61,774 nucleotides of DNA from a virus (IMGVR_UViG_3300045988_126226:131035-192808), one strand, 5' to 3'; positions 26,258-61,774 are shown, counted from the stretch's first letter. Program-made: numbers and translations. The notes: generated from the sequence alone by a model not told the origin.

Positions 26258-26521
26258 ATGTATTACACTCACGATTTTTCTACTGAAAAGTTCTCTACTC
26301 GCGGAGAATGTGTGGAAGAGCTTCTTTCTTCTATGGATTCTCTTGATATTTCAGAGTTTCTCGCCCACCGCGTTTCTCTTGCTGATATTATTAGTGAACG
26401 CATGGCCCGCGACCCCGAGGACTTTTACGACTGGTTAGATAGAGAAATTCAGATTGCGACTAATGCCTATCTTGAATGGCATATCAACGAACACTACGGT
26501 CATATAGAGGATTTAGAATGA
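26258..26521 (+). CDS. hypothetical protein (87 aa)
   Basis: SD aaaggaaagggg, TGA. Confidence 0.55.
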   Translation: MYYTHDFSTEKFSTRGECVEELLSSMDSLDISEFLAHRVSLADIISERMARDPEDFYDWLDREIQIATNAYLEWHINEHYGHIEDLE

Positions 26522-26661
26522 TTATTTTAATCGGCATTTTCGGCCTCGTTTTTGGCTTTATTTTTGCTTATTCCTGTGAAAGTCTCGGGTGGGACTATTT
26601 CAATATCGTATACGCTATTCCTGTGCTGATTTTGCTTAATTTCTTATCTTTCGTGTATTGA
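26518..26661 (+). CDS. small membrane peptide (47 aa)
   Basis: ATGA overlap with previous stop; hydrophobic. Confidence 0.4.
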   Translation: MIILIGIFGLVFGFIFAYSCESLGWDYFNIVYAIPVLILLNFLSFVY

Positions 26662-26752
26662 AAAAGACCGCGAAAATTTTGAAAAAAACGCTTGACAAGC
26701 AAATCCAATAGTGGTATAATACAGATACAGTAAAGGAAAGGGGTAAATACCT

Positions 26753-27253
26753 ATGAAAATCACTTACATCAAGTCTCACGTTGTAGCTACTCGACGCTCC
26801 ATCAACTTTGATATGGACGGCACTATCGCCAATCTGTATAATGTTGACAAGTGGTTAGAAAAACTTGGAGAAGAAGATGCTTCTTGTTATAGTGAAGCTG
26901 GCCCTATGTGCGATATGGCCGCGCTGAATGAAATCTGCGAACTTCTCCGCGCCGAGGGTTGGGAAATCAATATCATCACTTGGCTTGCTAAAAATTCAAC
27001 TGAGGAATATAAAAACCTCGTGCGTGAAGCAAAGCGCGAATGGCTTGAAAAATGGGGTTTCCATTACGACCATTTTTACGGCGTCCAGTATGGCGCAACC
27101 AAAGCCGACAGCGTGCGCGGTCGTTATGACGTGTCTATCCTGATTGACGATAATGAAAAGGTTCGGAATGGTTGGCACTTGGGCGCTACCATTGACCCGA
27201 CCGCAGTAAACATTATCGAAAAACTTTCGGAACTTTTGGAGAAAAGGGCTTGA
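26753..27253 (+). CDS. HAD-superfamily phosphatase, likely 5'(3')-deoxyribonucleotidase-like (166 aa)
   Basis: motif I FDMDGTIANL (DxDG[TV]) near N-terminus and ILIDDN motif IV; promoter cttgacaa..tataat; SD aaaggaaagggg. Confidence 0.6.
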   Translation: MKITYIKSHVVATRRSINFDMDGTIANLYNVDKWLEKLGEEDASCYSEAGPMCDMAALNEICELLRAEGWEINIITWLAKNSTEEYKNLVREAKREWLEKWGFHYDHFYGVQYGATKADSVRGRYDVSILIDDNEKVRNGWHLGATIDPTAVNIIEKLSELLEKRA

Positions 27254-27308
27254 CAAAGCCCTACTCCAATGGTATAATAAATACATCAAATGAAAAGGGG
27301 AAAATAAA

Positions 27309-27515
27309 ATGTTTGTTCTTTTGATTCTGCTGTCTCTCGCTGTTTCGTTCCTGCTTACCTCGGGTTTGGTTTGGCTTCTCTGTTGGCTTCTTCCCGCCCT
27401 CGGTATCACCGCAATCGGCACTTTTGTTATCGTGTTCTCGTGGAAGCTGGCGCTCGTGGTTTGGATTGTTCTCGTGCTTTTACAGTCCATCTTCTCGGTC
27501 GGCAATAAGGGGTGA
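27309..27515 (+). CDS. small membrane protein (68 aa, 2 TM)
   Basis: SD aaaagggg, hydrophobic. Confidence 0.5.
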   Translation: MFVLLILLSLAVSFLLTSGLVWLLCWLLPALGITAIGTFVIVFSWKLALVVWIVLVLLQSIFSVGNKG

Positions 27516-27520
27516 TAAAA

Positions 27521-27664
27521 ATGATGCCTTACTTTTGGCTTACTCTTGGCGTTCTCGCCAAAGTGACCGGACGAACTGCCGGTGGTAATTACCGTTATGA
27601 AACGGTTGTCTCTAAGGAAATTGGACTTGTGACCGCAGATTGGGTTAATACCCATCTGTTGTGA
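27521..27664 (+). CDS. small protein (47 aa)
   Basis: ATG 27521 after ggggtgataaaa; TGA. Confidence 0.4.
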   Translation: MMPYFWLTLGVLAKVTGRTAGGNYRYETVVSKEIGLVTADWVNTHLL

Positions 27665-27671
27665 GGTAAAA

Positions 27672-27986
27672 ATGCTGTATTTGATGATGGATAATTTAAC
27701 CAATAGCCATTTGGTTAAAGTTGGCTATTCTGACGGCACTAAGAACCTCGCAAAGCGTCGTAAAAGCTATTATAGCCACAATCCGAAAGCAATAATGCGT
27801 AGCACTTGCGCCGGAAGTCGAGACATAGAAAATTCTTGTCATCTGACTTTAAGTGAGTTAGGCAATCGCATTAGTGGCACAGAATGGTTTGAAGTGTCTG
27901 CGGATTTGTTTAATTCTCTTTATACCGAGGGAATGGCATTTTTCAGACCAAACCATAAACCGATTCATTTCTTAGAAGAATTTTGA
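27672..27986 (+). CDS. T5orf172/GIY-YIG-like domain protein (104 aa)
   Basis: VKVGYSDGTKNLAKRRKSY...TEWFEV pattern typical of the T5orf172 family. Confidence 0.45.
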   Translation: MLYLMMDNLTNSHLVKVGYSDGTKNLAKRRKSYYSHNPKAIMRSTCAGSRDIENSCHLTLSELGNRISGTEWFEVSADLFNSLYTEGMAFFRPNHKPIHFLEEF

Positions 27987-28000
27987 AAGAGGAAATAAAA

Positions 28001-28258
28001 ATGAAAGTAAATTTTGGCACTAAGGGTCAGCTTCAAATTATCAACATTCTCAGTGGTGGCACGTTCACCACCCCGCGTTCCAATGGCGTCGGCATGGGAA
28101 TGTATCTCAAAATTGACAGCAACAACAACACGCCGTTCGTTCGGTCGAGAGGTTCGCAGTATTGCTACGCGGTAAATCTTGAAACGGGTCAGGTTCGCGA
28201 GTTCTCGCGCGACAAAATGGTGACGCCGGTCAAGACCGAAGTCAATGTGATTGGCTAA
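28001..28258 (+). CDS. hypothetical protein (85 aa)
   Basis: SD agaggaaa, TAA, terminator. Confidence 0.5.
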   Translation: MKVNFGTKGQLQIINILSGGTFTTPRSNGVGMGMYLKIDSNNNTPFVRSRGSQYCYAVNLETGQVREFSRDKMVTPVKTEVNVIG

Positions 28259-28261
28259 AAG

Positions 28262-28492
28262 AAAATCTCCCCAAAAATGGGGAGATTTTTTTTGTTTACT
28301 TTAACTATTGACAAAACCATCTAAATGTGCTAAAATTGGCCGGTCGCTGACGCATGTTGCGACCGGAATTTACCATTATACACCCCACCAGCATTTTTGT
28401 CAAGAGAAATTTCGCACAAATTTCAATTTTATTTTTTCCCGTTATTTGGTTATTTTACCAATAGACAAATCATTACCAATCTGCTATACTAC
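28262..28492 (+). promoter_or_regulatory. regulatory cassette E: terminator; P1 ttgaca(28308)-tgtgctaaaat; hairpin ccggtcgc..gcgaccgg (28338-28366); TGTCAAGAG (28399); P2 tagaca(28462)-N17-tatact
   Basis: read directly. Confidence 0.55.
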
Positions 28493-28494
28493 AT

Positions 28495-28638
28495 AATGTC
28501 AGGAGGAAAGAGTAAGACCTGCGGAAAGGCAGTTCCCTTGACCATTATACCAAAATCCGACGGAATGTTCCAAGCGTGGCGTGCCGAACAAACTTTCAAA
28601 AAAAGTTTGAAAAACCCCTTGACAAACCGTTCTACGTA
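28495..28638 (+). ncRNA. promoter-proximal leaderless transcript AAUGUCAGGAGG... (sRNA or 47-aa leaderless ORF MSGGKSK.. ending in TAG)
   Basis: AUG lies 5 nt after -10 tatact; no SD; paralogous to 31032 and 31215 elements; ends at -35 of next promoter. Confidence 0.4.
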
Positions 28639-28901
28639 GGGTATAATGAATACATCAAATAAGAGAGGTAAACAAAATGATTTCTGATGCTCGTCCACCG
28701 CCTTAAAGACTGATTTGGTTTAGTAAAATGAATTGATTTATGATTATAGATAAAGGTAGGTATAAACAAGATGTATAGTAATAAACCTCGCGACCGCCCC
28801 CTAAAAAAATTGTAAAACCTATTGACAACCTGCTCCGCCTATGATATAATAACTACATCAAAGACAAGGACAGTCTTAAAAACCAGAAAGGAATTGATAC
28901 T

Positions 28902-29276
28902 ATGTCTACTTCTACTGTTAAGAAGCTCACCAAGCGCGACCGTTTCGAGGCTCTGCTCAAAATGAGCGAGGTTCAGGCGAATCCTGATATGGTGGCGTTC
29001 ATTGAGCATGAGATTGAACTGCTCGCCAAGAAGAACGCGGGCGATAAGAAGCCCACGGCCAAGCAGATGGAGAATGACGCCGTGAAGCAGGTCATTCTGG
29101 ACGAGATGACCGCAAACCCTGACAAGCTGTATACCGTGACCGACCTCATCAAGGGCGTTCCCGAGCTTGCGGAGTATACCAACCAGCGCGTTTCCGCTCT
29201 TCTGCGTCAGATGATTGATGCAGACACGGTTGTCAAGACGGTTGACAAGCGCAAGTCCTACTTCTCCCGCGCGTAA
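28902..29276 (+). CDS. paralog family protein A (124 aa)
   Basis: SD aaaggaa; about 70% identical to 31522..31899; distant paralog at 50327. Confidence 0.6.
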   Translation: MSTSTVKKLTKRDRFEALLKMSEVQANPDMVAFIEHEIELLAKKNAGDKKPTAKQMENDAVKQVILDEMTANPDKLYTVTDLIKGVPELAEYTNQRVSALLRQMIDADTVVKTVDKRKSYFSRA

Positions 29277-29419
29277 GGGTAAAGGGCAGGGGATAAAAAA
29301 AATCCCCTGCCCCACAATAAAAAACTGTTGACAAACCAATAGCAAAGTGCTATACTATTATCAGAGGTTGAGAGAACGATGGTAAACCTCAATCTACTTT
29401 TCCAATAGGAGACGATAAA

Positions 29420-30196
29420 ATGGGTATTGATAGGCGCAGAAACTACGGTATTATGCTGGACACGGAAACCGCAAACACCATTCAAGATGGTGATAAGCTG
29501 GATATGTCAAATGTTCTCCCCTACGACTTTGGCTGGGCGGTCATTGATTCCAAGGGTAATGTTTATGAGACTTATTCTTTTGTGAATCGAGACATTTTCT
29601 GCTATGAGCGCGACCTGATGCAGTCCGCATACTACGCCAATAAGATTCCCCGCTACATCGAGGACATTAAGAACGGTTCGCGCGTGATGGCTGACCTTTA
29701 CGAAATCCGCAAGGCATTTTGTGATTGCGTCGAGCGTTATAACTGTTCTTTCGTGTGCGCTCACAATATGCGGTTCGACCTTAACGCCTGCAACAACGCG
29801 CAAAGATGGGACACGAAAAGCAAGTATCGCTATTTCTTCCCCTACGATCTCGAAATCTGGGACACTCTGAAAATGGCGCGACAGGTTATGGGTAAAATGC
29901 CCACTTACCGCGACTATTGCGAAAAAAACGGCTACAAGACCAAGAACGGACAGCTCCGTTTCACCGCAGAAATTCTTTACCGCTTTATCAGCGGTGAAGA
30001 TAGCTTTGATGAATCCCACACGGGACTTGAAGATGTTCTCATTGAAGTTGAGATTCTGCGCTATTGCGTCCGACAGCACAAGGAAATGGAAAAGTCCCTT
30101 TTCAAAACTCCCACAGTGGAACGTCCCAAGCCGACCGAGTTTCAGCGCGCGCTCATGCGAAACATTAAGGAAAATCCCATGATAAACATGAGCTAA
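29420..30196 (+). CDS. DEDDh-type 3'-5' exonuclease (DnaQ/RNase T-like, 258 aa)
   Basis: Exo I MLDTETA, Exo II CAHNMRFDL, Exo III HTGLEDV motifs in correct order and spacing. Confidence 0.65.
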   Translation: MGIDRRRNYGIMLDTETANTIQDGDKLDMSNVLPYDFGWAVIDSKGNVYETYSFVNRDIFCYERDLMQSAYYANKIPRYIEDIKNGSRVMADLYEIRKAFCDCVERYNCSFVCAHNMRFDLNACNNAQRWDTKSKYRYFFPYDLEIWDTLKMARQVMGKMPTYRDYCEKNGYKTKNGQLRFTAEILYRFISGEDSFDESHTGLEDVLIEVEILRYCVRQHKEMEKSLFKTPTVERPKPTEFQRALMRNIKENPMINMS

Positions 30197-30274
30197 AAAA
30201 AAATAGGGAATGGGGCTTGACAAGTCCTATTCCCTATGGTATAATCAATGTATCAAATGAAAGAGGTGTTTTAC

Positions 30275-30553
30275 ATGACTGCTAAACAAGTCCTTTTTGT
30301 AGTCCCTGATGACAATGACCCTCACATGGGCATTTTAATCGACCATGACTATATTATCTGCGCCGAGTGCGGTGGCGTCTTTGAAGCTGACGAAGTTTTC
30401 ATTATTCAGATCTACGACTCTTGGGTAAACTTTGAAGATGAAATTGCGGACGAGCTTGACCTGCTGACCGCAAAAGACATTGGCAAGGAGCTGGATAGCA
30501 AGGAAAAGTTCGGCTGGGACGCGTGGAAAGAAGCCATTAAAGGGGAGTTCTGA
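30275..30553 (+). CDS. hypothetical protein with CxxC pair (92 aa)
   Basis: promoter cttgacaa..tataat, SD aagaggtg, TGA. Confidence 0.5.
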   Translation: MTAKQVLFVVPDDNDPHMGILIDHDYIICAECGGVFEADEVFIIQIYDSWVNFEDEIADELDLLTAKDIGKELDSKEKFGWDAWKEAIKGEF

Positions 30554-30555
30554 AA

Positions 30556-30648
30556 ATGGATTTGGATTTTACTTACATGACCAACGAAGAACTGGACGAA
30601 CTCATCGCTCAGATAAAGGAAGTCAAAGAAACCCGAGCGGAAAGCTGA
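30556..30648 (+). CDS. small acidic peptide (30 aa)
   Basis: ATG 3 nt after previous stop. Confidence 0.3.
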   Translation: MDLDFTYMTNEELDELIAQIKEVKETRAES

Positions 30649-30799
30649 AAGACTGACCTTTGGAGAAACGTTCAGCGGTCGGTTCAGAATTACGTCATGG
30701 AGTGTGGAATGATTGAACTCTTTACCGAGGACTACAATTCCACGCTGGACGCTGATTCTTTCCGTATTCCCGGCGAGATTAACCTGCTGGACTAAAATA

Positions 30800-31030
30800 A
30801 AAAACTGCCCAAAAATGGGCAGTTTTTTTTGTCTATTTTGCCTATTGACAAACGCGGATTTTTGTGATAAAATGGGCGGACCGCTGGCGCATGCGGCGGT
30901 CCGAATTTTTAATTATACCATGCCCCGCCAATTTTGTCAAGAGAAAAGCTGCACAAAAGTAAAGAAAATTTTTTCCCGTAATTTGGTTATTCTGTCAATT
31001 GTAATTTGTGGGCAATCTGCTATAATGAAT
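30800..31030 (+). promoter_or_regulatory. regulatory cassette F: terminator; P1 ttgaca(30845)-gtgataaaat; hairpin cggaccgc..gcggtccg (30875-30903); TGTCAAGAG (30935); P2 -10 tataat (31021)
   Basis: read directly. Confidence 0.55.
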
Positions 31031-31031
31031 A

Positions 31032-31175
31032 ATGTCAAGAGGGAAACCCCTGAGCCACAGGTCGGTGTGGGGCTACGGTTGGAAGTAGCAATAGACCGTT
31101 CACCTATTACGTTAAGGTCTCTTCGGAGCGGAACGCACGGGATAAAAGAAAAAATTCATGAGTTTTTTCTTGAAA
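31032..31175 (+). ncRNA. candidate sRNA 1 (starts AAUGUCAAGAGGGAAA; contains CUC-UUCG-GAG tetraloop hairpin)
   Basis: own promoter (-10 tataat 31021); no SD; only an 18-codon ORF ending in TAG; ends at -35 of next promoter. Confidence 0.45.
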
Positions 31176-31214
31176 ACCTCTTGACAAATCCCAGCGAGTG
31201 TGCTACAATAGAAA

Positions 31215-31440
31215 ATGTCAAGAGGGAGTAGCCCAAGAAATCCGAGGGCGCGCGACTTCGAGAAAGTACAGGAAGTAAACATAATATACCACGTTGTAAA
31301 GCCAAACGTTGAACGCGAAAGTGAGTTTGATTGAGCCAACTATACTCGAAGCGGTTTTCGCTGACAGATAGATTGAACCAACAAACAATAAATTATCCGT
31401 CAGGTCGGGGTAGTAATTCGTGTAAAAAGTTTGCGAAACC
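31215..31440 (+). ncRNA. candidate sRNA 2 (starts AAUGUCAAGAGGGAGU; shares CAGGUCGG motif with sRNA 1)
   Basis: own promoter ttgaca(31181)-N17-tacaat; no long ORF or SD; followed by promoter of 31522 gene. Confidence 0.45.
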
Positions 31441-31521
31441 TCTTGACAAGCACTCTAAAATGTGGTATACTCAATATATCAAAAGGGTAGCGACCTACCG
31501 CCAAAGAAAGGAATTGATACT

Positions 31522-31899
31522 ATGTCTACTTCTACTGTTAAGAAGCTCACCAAGCGCGACCGTTTCGAGGCTCTGCTCAAACTGTCCGAAGTTCAGGCTG
31601 ACCCCGCCATGGTTGAGTTTATCAATCACGAGATTGACCTGTTGGCTCGCAAGAACGCGGGAGACAAGAAGCCCACGGCGAATCAGATTGCCAACGACGG
31701 CTACAAGGACATTATCTTTGCTGAGCTGTCCGCGAATCCCGACAAGCTGTATACCGTGACCGAACTCATCAAGAACGTGGACGGTCTGGGTGACCTCACC
31801 AATCAGCGCGTTTCCGCTCTTTTGCGTCAGATGATTGACGCGAACGGCGTCGAGAAGATTGTGGACAAGCGCAAGTCCTACTTCCGTCTCGCGCGCTGA
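31522..31899 (+). CDS. paralog family protein B (125 aa)
   Basis: promoter cttgacaa(31443)..tatact, SD aaaggaa, TGA, strong terminator 31903-31935. Confidence 0.6.
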   Translation: MSTSTVKKLTKRDRFEALLKLSEVQADPAMVEFINHEIDLLARKNAGDKKPTANQIANDGYKDIIFAELSANPDKLYTVTELIKNVDGLGDLTNQRVSALLRQMIDANGVEKIVDKRKSYFRLAR

Positions 31900-31999
31900 T
31901 TCAGGGGGAGCGCCTGAAAAAAATCAGGCGCTCCCAAAAATTTCTCTTGACATTTGCTGACGGCGGTGTTATAATCATACTTGAAAGGGGGCAAAAGAA

Positions 32000-32407
32000 A
32001 TGCCTAAAATGAGTGAAAAGGACTTTCAGGCAAAGATTGATAATCTAATGAAAAAATTAGATTGTACTGCCGAGGAAGCAAAAGAAATTCTCATGGACGA
32101 TGATGACATTGACCATGGAATCGCCAAGGACTTTGACCTGTCCGCGGAAAAGCTCAAAGAAGCTAACAAGTATTCTAAGACCGGAACACGCAAAGCGCCG
32201 ACCGCTTATAAATTCGAGAAGCGACAGCGCAAGGAAAACCCCACAAAACGCTCGATTATCGCTGAACTTGCGACTTTTTTGCGTGAAAACAGCGAAAATG
32301 CGTGCGAAAATGTGGAAATTACGAATGTGGAGCGCATGATTGCGTTCCATGTGGGCGAAAATGACTACGAATTGACCCTGATTCAGAAGCGAAAGCCCAA
32401 AAACTGA
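32000..32407 (+). CDS. hypothetical protein (135 aa)
   Basis: promoter ttgacat..tataat, SD aaaggggg, TGA, terminator 32412-32452. Confidence 0.55.
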   Translation: MPKMSEKDFQAKIDNLMKKLDCTAEEAKEILMDDDDIDHGIAKDFDLSAEKLKEANKYSKTGTRKAPTAYKFEKRQRKENPTKRSIIAELATFLRENSENACENVEITNVERMIAFHVGENDYELTLIQKRKPKN

Positions 32408-32525
32408 TGAAAAAGGGTGAAAAACCGCTGAAAAATGCGGTTTTTCACCCAAAAACAAGTCAAAAAATGCAAAAAAATAATGGTTGAAAGAACGATGGTA
32501 AACCTCAATCAATAGAGAGGATTTT

Positions 32526-32942
32526 GTGCGAATGGAAGAAATTACTATTAAGCTACGCCGATTTAAGGACGGCAGACCGCCCGTTTCAATGGAGTTTATG
32601 CCCGATTGTGGCGAGAATCTGAAAGACGTTCAAGCGGTTTATTTCTTCAAGTTTTACAACAACAACAAACTTGAATTTAACAAGGTAGGCACTTCCGCAA
32701 AAGACGTTGTAGGGCGCTTACGTGATGAAATCGGCGAATACTCGAAAAAGTATTCTATCACTCGCGTTGAGATTCACCGAATCCGTTCTTGTGGGGACTA
32801 TCCCGCCGAGGGTGCGGAATCGGCATTGCGTGCGGAACTGATTAGACGCTACCCCAAAGCGTTTAGAAAGAATGACCGCTTTTTCAATGTGGACATTAAC
32901 CCCACGGTTTTCGATGAAATTGTAAACGCATTTCTTGCATAA
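32526..32942 (+). CDS. hypothetical protein (136-138 aa; GTG 32526 or ATG 32532)
   Basis: SD agagagga; preceded by conserved leader stem-loop; TAA; terminator 32950-32985. Confidence 0.5.
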   Translation: MRMEEITIKLRRFKDGRPPVSMEFMPDCGENLKDVQAVYFFKFYNNNKLEFNKVGTSAKDVVGRLRDEIGEYSKKYSITRVEIHRIRSCGDYPAEGAESALRAELIRRYPKAFRKNDRFFNVDINPTVFDEIVNAFLA

Positions 32943-32949
32943 ATATTCA

Positions 32950-33062
32950 ATCAGCAGGTTGACTAAAACCTGCTGATTTTTTTTGTGTATTTTGCCTATT
33001 GACACCGATCGGAAAATGTGGTATAATGGCCGGGCCGGGGTGGGACGTCCCGGCCCGATTTC
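32950..33062 (+). promoter_or_regulatory. regulatory cassette G: terminator; P1 ttgaca(32998)-tggtataat; GC hairpin 33028-33057; followed by ~270 bp non-coding with CCATATG inverted repeat
   Basis: read directly. Confidence 0.5.
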
Positions 33063-33336
33063 CCGATCGGTATACCCATATGCAAAATTTCTCATACTTC
33101 TAGCACCTCTCCATATGGCCCAAAAAAATCCCGAAAATTGACTTTTTATAAAAAATATGTTATAATGATAAAAAAAGACTTTTTTAAGCCCGCGTAGGAT
33201 CATATGCCTTTATAATTAATTAAAAATTGCTTCGCCCTTACATTGTTTCACGCGTATGTTTTCGTCCAAAAAAATCTTGACATTTTTAAAAAAAAAGTAT
33301 ATAATATATATAGAAAATAAGAAAAGAGGTATTCAT

Positions 33337-33714
33337 ATGGATATGAATGATATTATTGCTCGTCTAAAAAATGGTGAGGACGCTCAGGCTATTGCGGACG
33401 AAATGGCTAAGTCTCTGAATGATGCGGTTAAGCAAGTGGAGAAGGAAACTAAGCAGGCCGATCGGAAGACCGCGCTCGCGCAGGAAATCGCTGATCGGAT
33501 TAACGAGTATGCCGCTCTTAATGGCTGCAAGGATTCCGCGTTGACCGCGTCTGATGTGGAGAATATCTTTGCTGAGGTTTACGGTCTTATGACCGGGGTT
33601 ACCGATCTTCTTGACGCGCTTTTTCCCAAGAGTGAGAAGGTAAAGGTTAAGAAGGTCAAGAGAACTGATGATGATGTAATTGCCGAATTTTTGAATACTT
33701 TCATCAATAAGTGA
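33337..33714 (+). CDS. hypothetical helical protein (125 aa), first gene behind middle-type promoter
   Basis: promoter cttgacattttt..tatataat, SD aagaggt, TGA, terminator agagagac..gtctctc-T8. Confidence 0.55.
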   Translation: MDMNDIIARLKNGEDAQAIADEMAKSLNDAVKQVEKETKQADRKTALAQEIADRINEYAALNGCKDSALTASDVENIFAEVYGLMTGVTDLLDALFPKSEKVKVKKVKRTDDDVIAEFLNTFINK

Positions 33715-34011
33715 ACAATGTGTAGGGTGAGATATTTTTCATCCTAAGAATCGACAATTTCACCAAGAATTGCCTAATATGAAAAAAGAGAGACTGAAAA
33801 AAGTCTCTCTTTTTTTTAGGTCCGGAGATCGGAGACGGGAAAATGTGGTTGGTGGTTTAGTTAAACCGATCGACACCACATTTCCGCAATTTCCGCAATT
33901 TCTACGATTTCTACGATTTTTATCATCTTTTATTACTCTACATCTTCCAATTCCGAACCATCCATTAATTTAATCACTATCCAAAAGCGAATCAACCAAT
34001 ATAGGTCTATT

Positions 34012-39419: not shown

Positions 39420-40157
39420 ATGATTCCTGGACTTTATGAAATCTTTAATACGCGCTGGGGTGGTCAGACGGTCTGGGTATCCTCTGATTGGCATTTTGGC
39501 GATTCGGATCTGCGGAACGGCCACCCCGACCGCATTTCTGATGATGACCTTGTAAAATTGCTGAATAGCAAAGCCGGTCGGAAAGATGTGCTTCTTTGTT
39601 TGGGTGACGCAGGTGCGATCTCCTATGTGCGGAAACTGCGTGCCGGTTATAAGGTTCTTATCAAGGGCAACCATGATGCGGGATCTGAAAACTATAAGCG
39701 CAAAATCATTAAGAAAAAGTTCCCTATGGATCAGTATCAAAAAGACGAAGCGCTTATGGAAATGAAACGTCTTTATCCTGATTGTAAATATTCTATTGAC
39801 TCGGGATATGATTTCCATTCTCCTTTTGAATATTGGGAGATTTCCGCGGATAACGGTCTTTTTGACGAAGTATATGATGGCGCGCTCCTTATTGGTGAGA
39901 AACTTATGCTTTCTCACGAACCGATTAAGCAGGACTGGGCTCTCGATCTTCACGGCCACGACCACAATCATAAAGAGACGGACATCTATCACAAGAATGT
40001 TTGCGTGGATGTATTTGGCCCCGCCCCTTTGAACTTAAATCAGTTCATGAAAAATGGTCCGACTGCGAAGATCGAGAGCGTCCACAGGCAAGTGATTAAC
40101 AAAGCCACGATCAAAGCCCGGAAACGCGGATACAAATTGTCCGGACAAAAATATTGA
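39420..40157 (+). CDS. calcineurin-like metallophosphoesterase (245 aa)
   Basis: motifs SDWHFGD, CLGDAG, GNHD, HGHDH in canonical order. Confidence 0.65.
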   Translation: MIPGLYEIFNTRWGGQTVWVSSDWHFGDSDLRNGHPDRISDDDLVKLLNSKAGRKDVLLCLGDAGAISYVRKLRAGYKVLIKGNHDAGSENYKRKIIKKKFPMDQYQKDEALMEMKRLYPDCKYSIDSGYDFHSPFEYWEISADNGLFDEVYDGALLIGEKLMLSHEPIKQDWALDLHGHDHNHKETDIYHKNVCVDVFGPAPLNLNQFMKNGPTAKIESVHRQVINKATIKARKRGYKLSGQKY

Positions 40158-40197: not shown

Positions 40198-40356
40198 ATG
40201 AAAACTAAAAATAGTAGAATTGAAATTAGATTGCCTGAATAGATTAAAAATCAATTTCAGCTTTTAGCGAATAAAAAAAATACTACTATGAGCGCTATCT
40301 TATTAGAATACATTTTATTTTTACTAAGAAAAGAAGGTAATGAAAATGGGATATAA
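40198..40356 (+). CDS. ribbon-helix-helix (Arc/CopG-like) DNA-binding protein (52 aa, 1 TAG)
   Basis: SD gaggtg; beta-strand RIEIRLPE-Q-IKNQFQ followed by helices; overlaps start of endonuclease gene. Confidence 0.45.
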
Positions 40357-41269
40357 AATTGATATGACTGGATAGAAATTCGGTCGTTGGACTGTCATAG
40401 GTTTTGATTGTAATAAAAATAGACGAACTATGTGGAAGTGTAGATGCGATTGTGGCACTGAAAGAAGTGTTGAAGGAGCTCGTTTGAGAGGTGGTCGATC
40501 AAAATCTTGCGGATGCCTTTTAAGAGAAAGCACAGCATTACGTAGTCGTAAAGACATAACAAATTAGAGGTTTGGTCGATTAGTTGCTTTATATCCAACC
40601 GAAGAGCGTCAAGGTGGAAAAATTATTTGGTTATGTAAATGCGATTGTGGTAATGAAGTAAAAGTCCCAATAGATAGATTAACTGGAAAAAATACTTAGT
40701 CTTGTGGTTGTTTATCGAAAGAAAAAACAAGTGAAAGATTTTGTATTGATTTAACGGGATAGATATTTGGAAAATTAACTGTAATAAAAAGAGATAATAC
40801 TAAAAACTATAAACGAGTGCGTTGGCTTTGTAAATGTTCTTGCGGAAATTCAGAATTAGAATCTGTTGATGGCTATTATTTAAGGTCAGGAGAAAAAACT
40901 CAATGTTCTAAATGTGTTCCTAAGTCAAAAGGAGAAGAACAAATAAAAAATATTTTAATTAAAAATAATATTTCTTTCACACAAGAAAAAAGTTTTGATG
41001 ATTGTCGTTTTCCTAAAACTAATAGACTTGCTCGTTTTGATTTTTATATAGATAATAAATATTTAATAGAATTTGATGGAAGATAGCATATTTAGAATAC
41101 CAGTAAATGGAACAGTGAATGGAATTTAGAATATGTTTAGGAGCATGATTAGATAAAAAATAATTATTGTAAAGAACATAATATTCCTTTAATTAGAATT
41201 CCATACAGTAAAATTAATTATATCAAGCTTGAAGATCTTTTATTAGAAACTTCTAAATATAAAATATAA
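40346..41269 (+). CDS. multi-repeat Zn-ribbon / PD-(D/E)XK homing-endonuclease-like protein (307 aa, ~9 TAG)
   Basis: three repeats of G[KR]W..C[KR]C.CGN..(n)..SCGCL plus C-terminal FDFYIDNKYLIEFDGR-Q-HI Vsr/DUF559-like domain; open only with TAG as sense. Confidence 0.5.
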
Positions 41270-55992: not shown

Positions 55993-57408
55993 ATGCCAAA
56001 TACTTATAATCCTTCTGGCACTTCTATAACTGACTATTCTTCTATTAAATTTATCCCAGGAGATACTATTAATGGTAGTTATTCGGGAGCAGTAAATCCA
56101 GTAAAGCTTCCCGCAGGAAATTATCAACTAGAGTGTTGGGGTGGTTATGGTGGAATCGGCTATTCTGGTTCTTTAACTTCATCAACAATGACTTCATGGA
56201 TATATATAGGAAGTGGTAATGCAACTAGCTATTTTAACATTAATAATGATTCAAATTATTATTTTCGTCAAGATGGAAATGATTGGATAGCTACTAATGG
56301 AGGAATAAATTCAAGTACTGCTACAACTACATTAACTTGTACTTCTGGAGGAACTTATAAATTTTCATATTATTATAAAACTGAAGCGGGCTATGATGAA
56401 GTCACTTTAATAGTTGGAGGAACTACAGTTTTAAATGCTGTTTCTGGATCAAGTTCTCTTACTACCACTGGTACTTACTCTTTATCGTCAGGATCTACTA
56501 TTGTAATGACTTACTCTAAAGACAATTCAAGTTCAGTAGATAATGAAGAAGTTTATTTTTAGATTCAAAAATAGGAAAGTAGTACCACTTATACTCCTGC
56601 GAGTTCAAAAAATAGTTATTGGGGTGGGACAGGGGGATATTCTACGGGTATTCTTTCTTTATCAACCCCAACTTCTATTTATTTGTATACAGGGGGGCAA
56701 GGTAATTATTCAAGCGATAGCGAAAAAGGCAAAACGGTTGATGGTGGATTTAATGGAGGAGGTAGCTCTAAAATTAGATGGTATACTTCTGCTTATAGTT
56801 CCGGCGGTGGTGGTGGTGGAGCTTCTGATATTCGTATTGGATCAGATTCTCTTTACGCTCGTGTAATCGTTGCTGGTGGTGGTGGTGGCGGAGCAGGAGA
56901 AAGTAAATCTTCTGTTAAACAAGGTGGTGGATTAACTGGTAATTCTGCTGTTGAAGAATATAAAGCTACATAGACTAAAGCTGGTACTAATGGATCATTT
57001 GGGTAGGGAGCTAATTCTACTGGTTCTGGTAATTATAATTATGGTCCTGGTGGCGGTGGTGGCGGCTGGTATGGCGGCGGTGCTTCTACTAATGTAAGCG
57101 ATGGATCTGCTGATTATAGAACTTATAACGGTGGTGGTTCTGGTTATGTATATACTTCATCAACTGCTTCTAATTATCCCTCTGGCTGTTTATTAAATAG
57201 TAATTATTATTTAACAAATGCTTCTACTACAATAGGATATAGTAAAACTAATCCAGGAGGAAAACATGGATATATTCGTATTACTGTATTATCACCATTA
57301 AATGTAAAAATTAATTCTAATACTTATGTCCCTATTAAAGCAATATATACAAAAATAGATAATACAACTTGGAAAGGAGGTATAACCACATGGCAACCTA
57401 TGACTTAA
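55993..57408 (+). CDS. Gly-rich fibre/receptor-binding-like protein 1 (471 aa, 4 TAG)
   Basis: SD aaaggaggg; ORFs 55993..56562 and 56683..56973 co-linear via TAG; GGGGGGA and NGG repeats; motif LPAGNYQLECWGGYGG; C-terminal HGYIRITV. Confidence 0.5.
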
Positions 57409-58691
57409 CTTCTTCAATTCCTTCTTCTTCTTTTTTAAAAACGGGAGATATATTAAATTGTCCTTATAGCGGAACATATAAATCTATTACTCTCCCAAAA
57501 GGTACTTATAAATTAGAATGTTGGGGTGCTTAGGGAGGAAATGGAACTGCTTCTCCTTCTAATAATTCTCAATTATTTGGAGGAAAAGGAGGTTATTCAT
57601 ATGGAGTTTTTTCTCCTACTTCAGATACAGTTTTATACCTTTATTCTGGAGGACAAGGGGCAACTGCGACTGATACTTCATCCGGCCCAAATGGAGGATA
57701 TAATGGAGGAGGAGCTGGCAGTAAAAATGGAGATAATAATTCTAATACTCAAACTTCAGGTGGAGGAGGAGGAGCAACACATATTGCGATTACTTCAGGA
57801 TTATTAAATACTTTGTCTTCTTCTACGGCTTCAATTTTACTCATAGCTGGTGGAGGAGGAGGAGCTGGAGGTTGGTATGGTTCTTTCTCAACTCAATCTA
57901 GTGATGGCGGATATGGAGGAGGAAATTCTGGAGGATCTGCAGCGAATGGAGGAGGATATTCCGTCTCAGGAGGAACTCAATCAAGTGGATACTCTTTTGG
58001 GCAAGGGGCTAGTGCTTCGACTCATGTAGACCAAGGAGGTGGCGGAGGAGGATATTATGGAGGATATTGTTCCACTGGCACTTCAGATAGTAATATTTGT
58101 GGAGGAGGCGGGGGTTCTGGATATATAAATACTTCAAAACTTACTTCTGCTTCCACAATAGCTGGTAATACTTCATTTACATCTCCAACAGGGACAACTG
58201 AAACCGGACACAGCGGAAATGGATATATAAGAATTACTATTTAGTCTATTGTTAACTGGGCTTATTCTACTATATCAATATCTGCTCCTACTTATAATAA
58301 ATAGAATACTTCTTCTTGGACTTTGACTCCAAGTGCTTGTCGTTATTTTTCTTTTACCCCTACTATTTCAGGAGATTTTATTGTTTATTCTAATTCTTCA
58401 ATAGATACTTATGGTTATTTAACATCAAGTATTACTTCTCTTAATAATAGTGGATCGCCTTCTTCTAATATTTTAGCTAGTAGTGATGATTCCGCAAGAA
58501 AATATGGTGGATCTGGATATAATTTTGGTATTTGTTATAAAGTTACTGCCGGAACTACTTATCATATATTCGTTAAACCTTATAGCGATTCTACTACAGG
58601 TTCAGTATACTTAACTTATTATATGGCTCATCCTGATAGTAGAGTATATGTAAAAATAAATAACACTACATGGAAACTAATAACGAATTAA
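57390..58691 (+). CDS. Gly-rich fibre/receptor-binding-like protein 2 (433 aa, 3 TAG), paralog of previous
   Basis: SD ggaaaggagg; motifs LPKGTYKLECWGAQGG, LYSGGQG, NGYIRITI; includes ORFs 57813..58244 and 58323..58691 in one frame. Confidence 0.5.
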
Positions 58692-58770
58692 AAAATTTTT
58701 TGACATTTTTAAAAAAATAATATATAATATATTTATAAAATAAAGAAAGACCTTTACAGCAAAAATAACT

Positions 58771-58841
58771 TCCAGAATAGACTAAAGGTTAGGTCATAAT
58801 CATTTAAGATTAAGTTAATGGTTCAAATCCATTTTCCGGAC
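58771..58841 (+). ncRNA. tRNA-like element with non-canonical 6-nt anticodon loop
   Basis: acceptor 6/7 bp, D arm with GG, perfect T arm aatgg-ttcaaat-ccatt; anticodon stem taatc/gatta closes a 6-nt loop ATTTAA; needs tRNAscan/Infernal. Confidence 0.25.
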
Positions 58842-58863
58842 AAAGTTAAGGTCTTGTTTATAC

Positions 58864-58948
58864 AAGGGGGTCGCATAGCGGCGATTGCATCGGTCTCCAA
58901 AACCGACGGTTAATACCCACCAGGGTTCGAGTCCCTGCCCTCTTGCCA
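58864..58948 (+). tRNA. tRNA with anticodon CCA (Trp-type) but long variable arm
   Basis: acceptor aaggggg/ccctctt, G73, anticodon arm tcggt-CUCCAAA-accga, variable hairpin ggt-taat-acc, T arm caggg-ttcgagt-ccctg, encoded CCA. Confidence 0.6.
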
Positions 58949-59028
58949 AAACATTTACTTTGGAGGTCGAATTTATATAATTATATAAAAATAAATTTTA
59001 TATAATTATGAAAGGTAGATGTTTAATT

Positions 59029-59775
59029 ATGATAGGAATTTATAAAATTACAAATAAAGTAAATAATCATTGTTATATTGGATAGTCAATAAATATTTAT
59101 GATAGATGGAAGCATGAAAAAAGTGATGCTTTTCGTGAATAGAGTAAAAGTTATGATTATCCTCTTTCACGAGCATTAAGAAAATATGGAGTAGAGAATT
59201 TTACTTTTGAAATTTTAGAAGAATGTTCTCGTGAAGATTTAAATAAAAAAGAAATTGAATATGTTAAAAAATTTAATAGCTATAATGATGGATATAATTA
59301 GACATTAGGTGGCGATGGAACCAAGGGGTTTCAAATAAAATTATCTAATGAAGATATTTATGAAATATATAAATTACTATTAAATGAAGAAATTACTCAA
59401 AATGATATAGCAAAAAAATATGGCGTTGGGATAGATACCATATCAGAAATAAATCATGGGAAAACTAGAATATTAGATGGTTTTACATTTCCTTTAAGAG
59501 ATAATAGAAAAATTCATTTTTGTGTTGATTGCGGAAAAGAAATTTATCGTAGCTCTATAAGATGTAAAGATTGTGATTCAAAAAATTAGAGAAAAGTAGA
59601 ACGTCCTTCTCGTGATATTTTCAAATCTGAAATTAGAAATATTTCTTTTTTACAATTAGGTCATAAATATGGAGTTAGTGATAAATCAATATCTAAATGG
59701 TGTAAATATTATAATTTACCTAGTAAAAAATCAGATATAAAGAAAATTTCTGATGAAGATTGGAAGAATATTTAA
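59029..59775 (+). CDS. GIY-YIG homing endonuclease, I-TevI-like with Zn finger (248 aa, 4 TAG)
   Basis: N-terminus MIGIYKITNKVNNHCYIG-TAG-S (GIY...YIG); DRW; CVDCG..CKDC zinc finger; SD aaagg. Confidence 0.6.
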
Positions 59776-59861
59776 TTTATTTAAACAAAAGAACTTTTTT
59801 GATTTTATTAAAAATATATAATATAATATATATAGAAAGTTGAGAAAGGAGAAAATAAATA

Positions 59862-60044
59862 ATGAATATTGAAGTTGGTAATTCTTATTGTTTTGTCCCT
59901 TATCGCGGTCGTTGTTATCGTAGACAGTATCTTAAATGTACTGTCATTCGAGTATTAAATTATCAGATTGAAGTCCTTGATGAGCATGGTGAAAAATGGC
60001 TTCTTTCAGAAGATGATTTAATGCCAATTCAAAGACCTTATTGA
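59862..60044 (+). CDS. hypothetical small protein (60 aa)
   Basis: middle-type promoter; SD aaaggag; TGA. Confidence 0.5.
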   Translation: MNIEVGNSYCFVPYRGRCYRRQYLKCTVIRVLNYQIEVLDEHGEKWLLSEDDLMPIQRPY

Positions 60045-60197
60045 CATTTTATAAAAAATATTATATAATATTTATATAAGATGAAGAAAGAAAAAAGAAA
60101 ATAAAAAAACTTGGGTAAAAGAGAAAAGTTGATTTTTTAAAAAAAATATAATATAATAAATATATAAAGTAAGGATTTTAAAAAGTCCTTCTTTTAT

Positions 60198-60743
60198 GGG
60201 AGATTAGCTCAGCTGGTCAGAGCATTCGGCTGTTTACTTGACCTTATCATTTTCTTATAAAAAAATGAAATGAATAGTAAACAAAAAGGTAATATTACCG
60301 AGCTTGAAACAATGTTAGCATTTATGAAACTTGGTTATAATGTTCTTACTCCTTACGGAGATTGTGAGCGTTATGATTTTGTGGTTGATGTAAATGGTAA
60401 ATTTATTAGAATTCAAGCTAAAACATCGCGAACTGAAGATGATGGAGCTTCTTTTGCTTTTTCAGGTAGAAGTTCTCACAGGAAAGATGGAAAGATAGTT
60501 CATCATCAATATACTAACGAAGAAATTGATTACTTCGTAACTACTTTTAATGGAAAATGTTATTTGATTCCAGTGGAAGAGTGCGGAGCAGATAAAAGAC
60601 TTCGTATTCTTCCGCCTAAAAACAATCAAGTAAGAGGTATTACTTGGGCGAAAGATTATGAGTTGGAGGAAGTAGTAAGAAAATGGTAAGCTGATGTGTA
60701 AGCAACCGAAGTGCCATAGGTTCGAATCCTATATTTCCCGCCA
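60198..60743 (+). tRNA. tRNA gene split by a 469-bp intervening sequence (exons ~60198-60233 and ~60703-60743); anticodon after splicing depends on junction (GUC/Asp if group-I-like U|...G| junction)
   Basis: 5' half gggagat-ta-gctc-agctggtca-gagc-a-ttcgg; 3' half ccgaa-gtgcc-atagg-ttcgaat-cctat-atttccc-g-cca pairs perfectly with 5' acceptor and anticodon stem. Confidence 0.55.
60270..60689 (+). CDS. PD-(D/E)XK-type endonuclease encoded inside the tRNA intervening sequence (139 aa)
   Basis: motif YDFVVDVNGKFIRIQAK (D..D..QxK); occupies nearly the whole insertion; analogous to intron-encoded PD-(D/E)XK homing endonucleases of tRNA group I introns. Confidence 0.5.
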   Translation: MNSKQKGNITELETMLAFMKLGYNVLTPYGDCERYDFVVDVNGKFIRIQAKTSRTEDDGASFAFSGRSSHRKDGKIVHHQYTNEEIDYFVTTFNGKCYLIPVEECGADKRLRILPPKNNQVRGITWAKDYELEEVVRKW

Positions 60744-60983
60744 TTGGGGCGTTAACACGGATTTTGTAAGTTTAAACTACCACCGATCGAAAGAGTATGT
60801 GGCTTGCGGAAAACGCCCGACTAAATATAAGGAAGCGAAGTAAAACTTATTGTGAAGTAGTGGCTATACTCACATTAATCAAGGCTAAGGGTTCTGGGGA
60901 TCCAAAAGAGTAAAAGTTGGTTCGAGTCCTAACGATTGACGAAGTTCGAATCTTCGCGATGTGGGTTATAAAACTCTTTATTT

Positions 60984-61068
60984 GCCGAATTGGTGGAATG
61001 GTAGACATAGCAGAATTAGACTCTGCCGCCTTAAAGGTGTAAGAGTTCGAGTCTCTTATTCGGCACCA
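60984..61068 (+). tRNA. tRNA-Leu (anticodon UAG), class II
   Basis: acceptor gccgaat/attcggc, A73, CCA encoded, 3-bp D stem, anticodon arm gcaga-AUUAGAC-tctgc, long variable arm, T arm aagag-ttcgagt-ctctt. Confidence 0.65.
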
Positions 61069-61155
61069 GTCCCTCCCTGGGAATGCGTTAAAGGCTTGCG
61101 AACTTTGAACGCAGGTGGTTGGCGACTCCATCTATACATAAATAAGTCGCATTTC

Positions 61156-61231
61156 GGGCTTCGGGACTGCATGGCGTGGTCGTCTGTCTTGCACACAGAA
61201 AATCAGGTGAGTTCGATTCTCACGAGGTCCA
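61156..61231 (+). tRNA. tRNA-Ala (anticodon UGC)
   Basis: acceptor gggcttc/gaggtcc with G3:U70, A73; D stem gact/ggtc; anticodon arm tctgt-CUUGCAC-acaga; T arm gtgag-ttcgatt-ctcac; no CCA encoded. Confidence 0.6.
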
Positions 61232-61704
61232 GTCATCTAAAATTCACAACCGCCACGAGGTAGATGATGGGTAACGCTAATAGTGAATAGAAATGGTTAT
61301 ATGGTGTAAAGTGTAAGCACGGCGGTTAAGTAAACCGCAAGTTTGGGAGCATTGCCCAATATAACCGATTATATGACGATTATATGATTGGTGATAAAAG
61401 CAGCCAGAAATATTATCTTATTAATTAAACTTAATACAATATACTAAATGATATAATAGATAAGGTATATTAATAAAACTTATATATAATAAGATAATAT
61501 ATACAAAATGCTAATAGTGATTTTGGTTTCAGCGCTAAGAAAGTTTTTCCCACTAAGAAGAGAAAATTTGAGTAGTTAGCGTAGTCTTGATAATTATATC
61601 TTAAATAATTATCCCTTTTTGGCTCATAACCTTTTTTTGGATAAAAAATTATATTATATTTACCGTGATGCCGCGGAGGGACGGCCGCCCTAAAGTGCGA
61701 TTAA

Positions 61705-61774
61705 GATTAGAAAGAAGTTGGAAGATCTTCTTAAAACTTCCATTAGATTAGAAAGAAGTTGGAAGATCTTCTTA
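61705..61774. repeat. 29-bp direct repeat GATTAGAAAGAAGTTGGAAGATCTTCTTA x2 separated by 12 bp, at window edge
   Basis: read directly; contains palindrome AAGATCTT. Confidence 0.7.

Follow-up and report, generated by a model that had tools for sequence, protein, structure and literature searches.

An endonuclease-coding insertion in the anticodon loop of a phage tRNA-Asn gene, and the tRNA array around it

At the end of a 61,774-nt stretch of viral DNA (IMGVR_UViG_3300045988_126226:131035-192808; this whole stretch is referred to below as the window), a gene for tRNA-Asn(GUU) is divided within its anticodon loop by a 469-nt insertion that encodes a PD-(D/E)XK homing endonuclease. The question raised by this locus is what becomes of such an insertion in the transcript. 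Bacterial and phage tRNA introns are regarded as self-splicing, and protein-dependent tRNA splicing as archaeal or eukaryotic. A fixed anticodon-loop site in at least five tRNA types, the lack of a ribozyme, and a covarying helix point either to an undescribed RNA cut-and-join pathway in bacteria infected by phages or to a new way in which a selfish gene can travel inside a tRNA. Literature searches returned nothing relevant on phage tRNA introns with PF11645, the family of this endonuclease, or on ribozyme-less tRNA introns, and an endonuclease insertion that is guided by a helix, has no ribozyme, and occupies position 36/37 of a tRNA is undescribed as far as the literature searched shows. 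While the anatomy of the array and of the split tRNA can be given with high confidence, the explanation considered best here is tentative when taken as a whole, with the inferred excision step included, and its chances are judged to be slightly below even.

The split tRNA-Asn gene and its endonuclease

The genes and RNAs of the array described below all lie on the plus strand. A first-pass annotation, made from the sequence alone, described a T4-like tRNA region in which GIY-YIG and PD-(D/E)XK homing endonucleases are interleaved with the tRNAs. The cluster, with its atypical members and homing endonucleases, is indeed broadly T4/T5-like and the GIY-YIG gene is free-standing, but the PD-(D/E)XK gene lies inside a split tRNA-Asn (60198-60234 + 60704-60743). 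The two halves can be read from the sequence, with a 5' half from 60198 and a T arm, acceptor, and CCA up to 60743, and ARAGORN also calls a split gene with the intron settings that the same annotation had proposed. In the corrected register, the 5' exon (60198-60234) comprises nucleotides 1-36 and ends in ...CUGUU, the 3' exon (60704-60743) comprises nucleotides 37-76 with an encoded CCA, and the mobile insertion, or 'intron' (60235-60703, 469 nt), lies between tRNA positions 36 and 37. The insertion consists of a 35-nt 5' arm, the open reading frame (ORF) of the endonuclease (60270-60689, 139 aa), and a 14-nt 3' arm after the stop codon.

The uncorrected ARAGORN call is a tRNA-Asp(GUC) with an intron at 35/36, but both isotype and register are wrong, as an intron-free ortholog and the nearest neighbors of the joined exons give Asn(GUU) and 36/37. 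The ortholog is found in a related viral locus (L038 c[3389,3465]; related loci are cited by numbers of this form), at the same genomic position and directly upstream of a conserved RNA, element X, that is described below. It is identical to the joined exons of the window at 75 of 77 positions, the sequence of this allele type being TTCGGCTGTTAACCGAA, and comparison of the two leaves T36/A37 as the single possible insertion point. Among 661 intron-free tRNAs from the related loci, the nearest neighbors of the joined exons are Asn-GTT, and those of a distant endonuclease group are Gln-TTG. The 36/37 register also gives natural anticodon loops elsewhere (CUUUUAA for Lys, CUGAUAA or UUGAUAA for Ile, and CUUUGAC for Gln), and all 21 distinct products spliced in silico are called as complete tRNAs. 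Since standard tRNA finders miss or misname such split genes, as with the window's gene that ARAGORN names Asp, the tRNA inventories of recoded phages are incomplete. The same endonuclease insertion occurs in a class I tRNA of a human-gut viral contig (L021 3950-4460), where the joined loop is UUUUAAA and the anticodon UUA resembles that of an ochre suppressor. ARAGORN also proposes larger insertions (~470-860 nt) in other tRNAs of the same arrays (L008 2999-3905, L015 2575-3122, L020 2036-2845, L027 6255-7004, and L029 6358-7160).

The endonuclease belongs to the I-Ssp6803I family: it matches PF11645 with 111.3 bits over residues 1-132 (cut-off 26.1 bits) and the I-Ssp6803I structure (2OST chain A) with E = 9.5e-10, the YD...D...Q-x-K positions being aligned. 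Thirty-five related viral loci with 30-99% protein identity were retrieved, and ARAGORN with introns places the endonuclease inside a tRNA in most of them; after inspection of the flanks this extends to all except L034 and L035. One of these loci is from the cultured Enterococcus phage EFP01, in which the endonuclease is annotated as a hypothetical protein and the tRNA is unannotated; in its genome record (KY549443) the split tRNA-Asn is at ~105243-105779 and the endonuclease CDS at 105353-105730. At the orthologous position, the site is occupied in the window and L001-L003 and empty in L038, L046, L048, L050, and L057, and a second polymorphism of this kind has L004 occupied and L054, L058, and L059 empty. 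The insertion is 97-99% identical between the window and L001-L003 yet resides in clearly different tRNA-Asn exon alleles, as expected for homing. Having both an encoded endonuclease and occupied and empty alleles, it qualifies by sequence comparison as a mobile (homing) intervening sequence. Seven further PF11645 ORFs are present among the Pfam families listed (25 of the 33 matched) for 81 ORFs flanking invaded tRNAs, so several tRNAs per array can be targeted.

These results bear directly on the view taken in the first-pass annotation, that of an ordinary T4-like cluster supplying codons rare in the host, with free-standing endonucleases and a few degenerate tRNA remnants. The free-standing GIY-YIG gene agrees with that view, as do relatives of the PF11645 enzyme that stand free between tRNAs in cultured My1 and Kuttervirus, and the swapping of tRNA cassettes among relatives. 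However, the PD-(D/E)XK gene has one half of a single tRNA on either side, and the intron-free ortholog contradicts a free-standing gene; the supposed remnants include a covarying pseudoknot RNA; and the phage itself seldom uses CUA and CUG (each 2% of Leu codons in its genes; GCA is 17% of Ala), so that its own usage lends no support to codon supplementation by tRNA-Leu(UAG). An ordinary cluster is therefore hardly tenable as an account of the region.

An anticodon-pairing helix and the fate of the insertion

One precursor fold is predicted throughout the 21 distinct variants, which come from Asn, Lys, Ile, Gln, and UUA tRNAs. It consists, in order, of the 5-bp anticodon stem, a mismatch of positions 32 and 38 (32x38), a first helix (H1), an internal loop, and a second helix (H2). 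H1 has 7-10 bp and is formed by 33:37, by positions 34-36 with the last three bases of the insertion, and by the first bases of the insertion with those from -4 onward; in the window it pairs 60231-60237 with 60698-60704. The internal loop is UUGAC / CUGAUGU in the window and is often YUGAC opposite CUGAUGU, with tandem G.A pairs possible. H2 has 9-16 bp across the variants, contains the stop codon of the endonuclease, and pairs 60243-60257 with 60676-60690 in the window. The terminal triplet of the insertion follows the anticodon (AGC-GUU, AAA-UUU, AUC-GAU, CAA-UUG, and UAA-UUA), and beyond the anticodon the fraction of paired positions is 88%, as against 54% (at most 69%) with partners exchanged at random among the sequences. 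G.U pairs are tolerated, and 13 of the 21 variants retain a U35.G wobble. Because DNA would have a mismatch at this place, the wobble speaks for selection at the RNA level. The two junctions are 3 bp apart on H1, and cuts at these places would leave 3-nt 3' overhangs.

The insertion has little space for anything else. Insertions with endonucleases of the 139-aa type measure ~462-483 nt and their ORFs 396-423 nt, leaving ~50 non-coding bases, while the P3-P9 core of a group I intron requires ~200 nt and such an intron must end in G. No match to the group I model (Intron_gpI, RF00028) or to another ribozyme was found in the insertion at E <= 10 in the window. Intron_gpI likewise had no match in L008 at E <= 1, including its larger-insertion cases, and none among the best 150 of 165 gathering-threshold matches in 17 loci. 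The last base of the insertion is C in the window and in the Ile type, A in the Lys and Gln types, and never G, and the 5' exon of the Gln type ends in G rather than U; with boundaries set by the intron-free ortholog, the group I rule (5' exon ending in U, intron ending in G) fails. At conserved residues, codon-level entropy stays uniform over the whole ORF (0.7-1.5 bits in each 10-codon window), and the coding sequence conceals no RNA core. A group I intron is rejected for these four reasons: the size of the non-coding part, the covariance-model results, the terminal base, and the uniform silent-site variation.

Self-splicing by a ribozyme that has escaped recognition is improbable for much the same reasons, whether it is imagined as a reduced group I core overlapping the ORF or as a new small ribozyme built from the arms and the YUGAC / CUGAUGU loop. 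The loop is strongly conserved across endonucleases that are only 57-90% identical, and the 5' exon does end in U in the Asn, Lys, and Ile cases, but the conserved loop is 7-9 bp from both junctions and no stretch of the ORF has suppressed silent-site variation. The loop was also considered as a hammerhead, hairpin, or K-turn and did not fit, as a third helix is missing, a K-turn would need a different strand asymmetry, and the loop is symmetric in L016. In favor of a ribozyme, PF11645 endonucleases are known from genuine group I introns in tRNA-fMet and tRNA-Arg; the published PF11645-bearing tRNA introns are longer than 500 nt and bona fide group I (PMC13011429).

The reading preferred here is that the insertion spreads as DNA and is removed as RNA by proteins. 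The PD-(D/E)XK enzyme would cut intron-free tRNA-Asn genes of co-infecting relatives in the anticodon region, and repair of the cut gene would copy the insertion in. In the transcript, the insertion, having no room for a ribozyme, would zip its ends onto the anticodon, first by 33:37 and then at 34-36, extending the anticodon stem by ~7 + 15 bp and placing both junctions 3 bp apart on one helix. The helix may then be the recognition element for a protein endonuclease and an RNA ligase, of the phage or the host, that would excise the insertion and restore tRNA-Asn; the sequences suggest this without making it quite an even proposition. A more specific form, in which a structure-specific nuclease would cut both helix strands 3 bp apart, an RNA ligase would reseal the anticodon loop, and the insertions would constitute widespread ribozyme-less phage tRNA introns, is rather unlikely. 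As a lead only, I-Ssp6803I reportedly cuts DNA beside the anticodon with 3-nt 3' extensions (Bonocora and Shub 2001), the same stagger, and on that parallel the PD-(D/E)XK enzyme encoded by the intron might even serve as the nuclease. RNase III was considered as the excising enzyme and rejected, as only 1- or 3-nt staggers can leave a 7-nt loop and its stagger is 2 nt. If excision by proteins were true, tRNA splicing that depends on proteins would have its first example in the bacterial world.

Some signs suggest that the invaded tRNA may still be used. Its encoded CCA is kept or, in L016-18, a predicted ribozyme of the theta type discussed below is located exactly at its 3' end, and in contig 3300045591_000029, where ~30 tRNAs are seen, the invaded gene is the sole canonical Asn gene. 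Other observations weigh against excision, and some of them are as expected if the insertion is never removed and the tRNA-Asn is a dead gene that serves as a carrier for the endonuclease. Like an engineered 'tRNA scaffold', the tRNA body would then lend stability and allow processing by RNase P/Z, and the long helix would close the endonuclease mRNA into a protected panhandle. A second, intact tRNA-Asn is present ~2.3 kb downstream in window-type arrays, and this phage might therefore do without the interrupted one. Some invaded alleles (L005, L007, L028, and L019) have degraded T loops, and the helix persists even in genes whose tRNA has a decayed appearance. The endonuclease ORF starts in the loop that directly follows H2 and has its stop codon within H2. 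RNA ligase, RtcB, polynucleotide kinase, and splicing-endonuclease domains were not found in the window's larger ORFs, and no such enzyme is among the families listed for the 81 flanking ORFs. Neither bacteria nor these phages are known to have a splicing endonuclease.

The geometry of the junctions also counts against excision. The bulge-helix-bulge has two 3-nt bulges that contain the splice sites, a 4-bp helix between them, and a canonical position of 37/38. Here the junctions are within a continuous, bulge-less helix of 7-10 bp, the sole irregularity is the 32x38 mismatch, and the position is 36/37, unlike every known protein-spliced tRNA intron.

A dead carrier is harder to reconcile with other features of the invaded genes. 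The joined exons still fold as full tRNAs in 21 of 21 cases, acceptor stems covary between lineages, and the invaded gene of L004/L049 is the sole canonical Asn among ~30 tRNAs. A panhandle, moreover, needs neither exact pairing of positions 33-36 nor a triplet that tracks the anticodon in five tRNA types. Permanent retention of the insertion is thus a serious possibility that is nonetheless well short of probable, and helix-guided excision by proteins is retained as the preferred, if tentative, reading.

Small RNAs, tRNAs, and genes around the split gene

The region is the promoter-proximal head of an array of ~20 tRNA genes, and the large tailed phage that carries it translates TAG as an amino acid in late genes. 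Five tRNA-shaped genes are called by ARAGORN at the window end (58771-58841, 58864-58948, 60984-61068, 61156-61231, and 61294-61368). The array begins with a tRNA that has a 6-nt anticodon loop, followed by tRNA-Trp, the GIY-YIG gene, tRNA-Asn(GUU) with its 469-nt insertion, element X, a double T-arm module, tRNA-Leu(UAG), tRNA-Ala(UGC) fused at its discriminator base to a predicted theta ribozyme, and a further tRNA-shaped RNA. In the relative L057, the same array extends for ~9 kb and ~20 tRNAs, including a CUA suppressor and a second tRNA-Asn, and therefore the window holds only the head. The related IMG/VR contigs are ~125-197 kb. The tRNA cassettes vary among relatives that are otherwise 97-99% identical, with spacers and element X unchanged; the array is put together, mosaic-like, from interchangeable tRNA cassettes, genes for selfish endonucleases, and small structured RNAs. 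In addition to the split tRNA, the first-pass annotation overlooked the ribozyme at 61232-61288, the cloverleaf at 61294-61368, and the recoding of TAG.

That annotation had noted two GTTCGA(A/G)T motifs in a stretch that it could not fold into standard tRNAs. The motifs are present (60921-60927 and 60945-60951) and no tRNA is called there by ARAGORN or Rfam, but the supposedly unfoldable region contains a pseudoknotted element X and a double T-arm module rather than failed tRNAs. Element X (60744-60853) is recognized by its nhmmer copies and by covariation. It has helices P1 (GGGCGUU / AACGCCC) and P2 (GUAAGUUU / AAACUUAU) and an inner hairpin (CCAC / GUGG), and since P2 crosses P1 it is a pseudoknot. 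A search of 86 loci with nhmmer found 38 copies of ~105-150 nt, all inside arrays and co-oriented with the tRNAs; most begin 1-2 nt after the 3' end of a tRNA (Asn or Leu-UAG) and end 2-10 nt before the next tRNA. The copies are in L001-L062, examples being L036 5036-5167, L053 2303-2407, L010 4526-4659, and L027 4488-4618. P2 has 14 different sequences, all of which pair, P1 shows compensatory changes (GCGUU/AACGC to CCGUU/AACGG or CCGCU/AGCGG), and the junctions are long and invariant. The window scan gave no Rfam match for element X, and minimum free energy (MFE) folding of 60744-60983 is no better than that of shuffled sequence. A role as a tRNA 3'-processing ribozyme was considered because the P1/P2 topology is like that of the hepatitis delta virus (HDV) ribozyme, but P3 does not abut P1, the GG of a putative P1.1 is not conserved, and a 3-nt spacer follows the encoded CCA. 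Nor does the element fit the HDV, twister, pistol, or hatchet patterns. Element X is undescribed as far as the literature searched shows, and it adds a well-supported unnamed RNA class that would be processed out of tRNA arrays.

The double T-arm tRNA-like module (60871-60965) was read from the sequence, and its fold is provisional because only near-identical relatives carry it. It would have two nested helices that resemble acceptor stems, an outer one (CACAU / AUGUG) and an inner one (UUAAUC / GAUUGA), together with a hairpin (GGGUUC-UGG-GGAUCC), and two T arms at 60916-60933 and 60940-60956, the first of which is canonical (GUUGG-UUCGAGU-CCAAC) in L038 and L048. Tandem T-arm RNAs (GGTTCGAGTCC ... 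GTTCGAATC within ~25 nt) recur in unrelated viral contigs (L068, L073, L076, L078, L079, and L081-L083), some with an acceptor-like closing stem. A link between such RNAs and Y-RNA/Ro-like systems is a guess. Among the families listed, DUF2828/DUF7788 proteins account for 3 of the 81 ORFs flanking invaded tRNAs.

The tRNA-Ala(UGC) is directly followed by a predicted theta-type minimal HDV-like ribozyme (61232-61288), found with a strict descriptor and by alignment to RF02682. The descriptor demanded a perfect 7-bp P1 starting from G, a 3-bp P3, CC in L3 pairing with GG, and a P2, and this site is its only clean match on both strands of the 61.8-kb window. Its P1 (GUCAUCU / AGAUGAU, with a G1.U pair), P2 (AUUCAC / GUGAAU), and P3 (ACC / GGU) are without mismatch, and L3 (GCCACGA), P1.1 (GG:CC), and J4/2 (CUAAUA, with its C at 61276) are in place. 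RF02682 (HDV-F-prausnitzii) aligns at 61232-61290 with the same elements at 28.5 bits and E = 0.016; the threshold of this family, the nearest in Rfam, is 44, which is a point against the assignment. No spacer (0 nt) separates the ribozyme from the discriminator A61231 of tRNA-Ala, a tRNA without an encoded CCA, and at this place L001-L003 have GGTCCACCA, with an encoded CCA and no ribozyme. The same ribozyme is found after tRNA-Ala at distance 0 in L048, L050, and L057, a theta-type ribozyme is located 1 nt after tRNA-Met in L011, and in L016-18 the ribozyme comes directly after the discriminator G of the invaded tRNA-Asn, a gene uncalled by ARAGORN without introns. The ribozyme would cut itself off and so create the 3' end of tRNA-Ala, with CCA being added afterwards. 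HDV-like ribozymes were also sought after the other tRNAs of the window, where a loose descriptor gave hundreds of chance matches and the strict one only this convincing site. Theta ribozymes have been reported within 5 nt of tRNA 3' ends, mostly of tRNAs without CCA, in recoded gut phages (Kienbeck et al. 2024, PMC10879173).

Covariance-model scores, proposed in the first-pass annotation as the means of refuting its tRNAs, uphold most of them. The gathering threshold of the Rfam tRNA model (RF00005, 29 bits) is reached by the Trp, Leu, and 6-nt-loop genes but not by 61156-61231 (23 bits) or 61294-61368 (no match). The first gene (58771-58841), described from the outset as tRNA-like with a 6-nt anticodon loop, is called 'tRNA-???(tt)' by ARAGORN and scores 42.7 bits with one loop position deleted. 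Its loop, AUUUAA, allows the anticodon to be read as UUA or UUU. The gene is identical in five relatives, and loop variants CUUUAA (L003) and CUUCAA (L046) also exist; the 6-nt loop is not a sequencing error, because it is kept in three sequence variants. It is probably not a TAG suppressor, as the UUA->UCA variant (L046) is found in a phage that still looks TAG-recoded and an ordinary CUA suppressor is present in the L057 array. Further tRNAs with odd anticodon loops of 8 nt (tgtt, tatg, and taaa) or 6 nt are present in related arrays (L004 6864-6938, L049, L026 2386-2463, L006 6889-6963, and L011 4844-4916), and the 8-nt-loop gene of L004 occupies the place of the relatives' second tRNA-Asn. 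In arrays with invaded tRNAs, ROOL RNAs (265 and 341 bits) and a tmRNA (93 bits) were also seen (L022 4930-5516, which is Enterococcus phage EFP01; L024 5611-6235 and 6918-7219).

The tRNA-Trp(CCA) (58864-58948, with encoded CCA) is called by ARAGORN and scores 49.4 bits, and the long variable arm and 3-bp D stem attributed to it are borne out: the variable region is enlarged to ~14 nt (an 11-nt insertion relative to the Rfam model), and the D stem of 3 bp has one non-standard pair in the Rfam alignment. G73 and the CCA anticodon presumably fit Trp identity. The gene is identical in L048 and L050, and L003 has an ordinary 75-nt Trp tRNA at the same place. The free-standing GIY-YIG homing endonuclease gene (59029-59775, in a stop-to-stop frame of 58981-59775) has four in-frame TAG codons and, with TAG read as Gln, a GIY-YIG domain of 32.7 bits (Pfam cut-off 22.6 bits) plus a helix-turn-helix. 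Between this gene and tRNA-Asn there is a 60-aa ORF (59862-60044) with a promoter-like site at 59799-59827 and no Pfam match.

The class II tRNA-Leu(UAG) (60984-61068, with encoded CCA) is called by ARAGORN and scores 50.8 bits, as the first-pass call would have it. It is followed by a conserved 87-nt spacer (61069-61155) that is 95-96% identical in L001-L003 and has an MFE fold no better than shuffled sequence (z = -0.77). Pieces of two spacers (window 61069-61155 and 60852-60886) are fused after tRNA-Leu(UAG) in the distant L020 (1336-1406), and a CTATAC motif is common to both conserved spacers, which may act as promoter or processing signals. The divergent tRNA-Ala(UGC) (61156-61231) is called by ARAGORN with the G3:U70 pair noted earlier and has a 7-nt variable loop and no encoded CCA, but its earlier description as convincing was overstated, since its best Rfam clan score, to the tRNA-Sec model, is 23.0 bits and under threshold. 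It is kept in relatives. The cloverleaf RNA named 'Thr(AGU)' by ARAGORN (61294-61368) keeps all four of its stems intact but has A33 and a T loop, AGCAUUG, that departs from the standard. It had no Rfam match in the regional scan and rests on ARAGORN and conservation; its MFE z is -2.58, and a compensatory change in the T stem is seen in L003 (UUGGG/CCCAA to UUAGG/CCUAA).

Recoding is evident in many ORFs that are long only with TAG readthrough, with 1-13 in-frame TAG codons each and every one ending in TAA. The zones of in-frame TAG (window 1-17135, 40328-41269, and 55993-59775) comprise structural and late genes and the GIY-YIG gene; among them are the genes of the large terminase (13101-14843) and of the portal protein (11069-12748). 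Of the 8221 codons of confident genes, 74 are TAG, and no in-frame TGA was seen in the confident genes of the window. TAG probably encodes Gln, because the YIG*S motif of the GIY-YIG gene contains one TAG (YIGQS). A promoter-like TTGACA-17-TATAAT site that matches at 12/12 positions is found on the plus strand ~40 nt upstream of the first tRNA (58700-58728). A second perfect match (12/12) is present at 60041-60069 and a 10/12 match at 60129-60157, upstream of tRNA-Asn. Promoter-like matches overall are not above shuffled expectation; the two perfect sites alone stand out.

Elsewhere in the window, a 16-kb block (17700-34000) has a GC content of 40-47% versus 27-38% and is without a long ORF in any code. 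It apparently contains many short standard-code genes, several with a consensus TTGACA/TATAAT promoter before them and a hairpin terminator after them (e.g., ~22130-22215 and 28250-28300). TGA recoding was considered for this ORF-poor block (17.7-34 kb) and rejected, as the translations are junk except for the short standard-code genes. A calcineurin-like metallophosphoesterase gene (39420-40157; Pfam 26.3 bits) encodes the only enzyme of the window that could conceivably act on RNA ends, and nothing connects it with tRNAs. At 61700-61774, a 29-nt unit, GATTAGAAAGAAGTTGGAAGATCTTCTTA, occurs twice, ~12 nt apart, with an inverted repeat in each copy, and reaches the window end.

Relation to known systems

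The closest known relatives of the insertion are the I-Ssp6803I-type introns, namely the group I intron of cyanobacterial tRNA-fMet and introns of tRNA-Arg, which have the same endonuclease family, target the natural palindrome of a tRNA anticodon stem-loop, and are inserted in the anticodon loop (PMC13011429). However, those introns are longer than 500 nt, have a group I core, follow the U...G rule, and are self-splicing, while the insertion of the window has 469 nt with ~50 non-coding bases, ends in C, is located at 36/37, and has no core that could be found. The protein-spliced tRNA introns of archaea and eukaryotes also pair with the anticodon and lengthen the anticodon stem, they have no conserved junction sequences, so that recognition here would likewise be structural, and those of archaea can carry homing endonuclease genes. 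They differ in being at position 37/38 with two 3-nt bulges, in contrast to the continuous helix at 36/37. The split tRNA genes of Nanoarchaeum and engineered tRNA scaffolds also have halves joined by a long helix that continues from the anticodon stem, but the halves in the window are joined in cis through a protein-coding loop.

The tRNA regions of T4 and T5 contain free-standing homing endonucleases (SegB and F-Tfl), and T4 has the stable RNAs C and D. The array is similar to them in combining tRNAs with a GIY-YIG gene, in the shuffling of cassettes, and in small stable non-tRNA RNAs that lie between tRNAs and are released by tRNA processing. An endonuclease inside a tRNA, a 3' end made by a ribozyme, and stop-codon recoding are features that T4 and T5 are without.

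The theta ribozyme, the GIY-YIG gene, and the recoding of TAG are known kinds of feature. The ribozyme of the window shares with published theta ribozymes the nested P1/P2/P3/P1.1 arrangement, a minimal P4, the G1.U pair, and a C followed by AA in J4/2, as well as a cleavage site 0 nt from the discriminator of a tRNA without encoded CCA in a TAG-recoding phage (PMC10879173). It departs from them in its 28.5 bits against the threshold of 44 for the nearest Rfam family and in its partner, which is a divergent Ala tRNA and not a suppressor. In size, recoding, and load of selfish elements, and in these respects only, the phage may be compared by analogy to the intron-rich crAss-like groups (Yutin et al. 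2021, PMC7886860).

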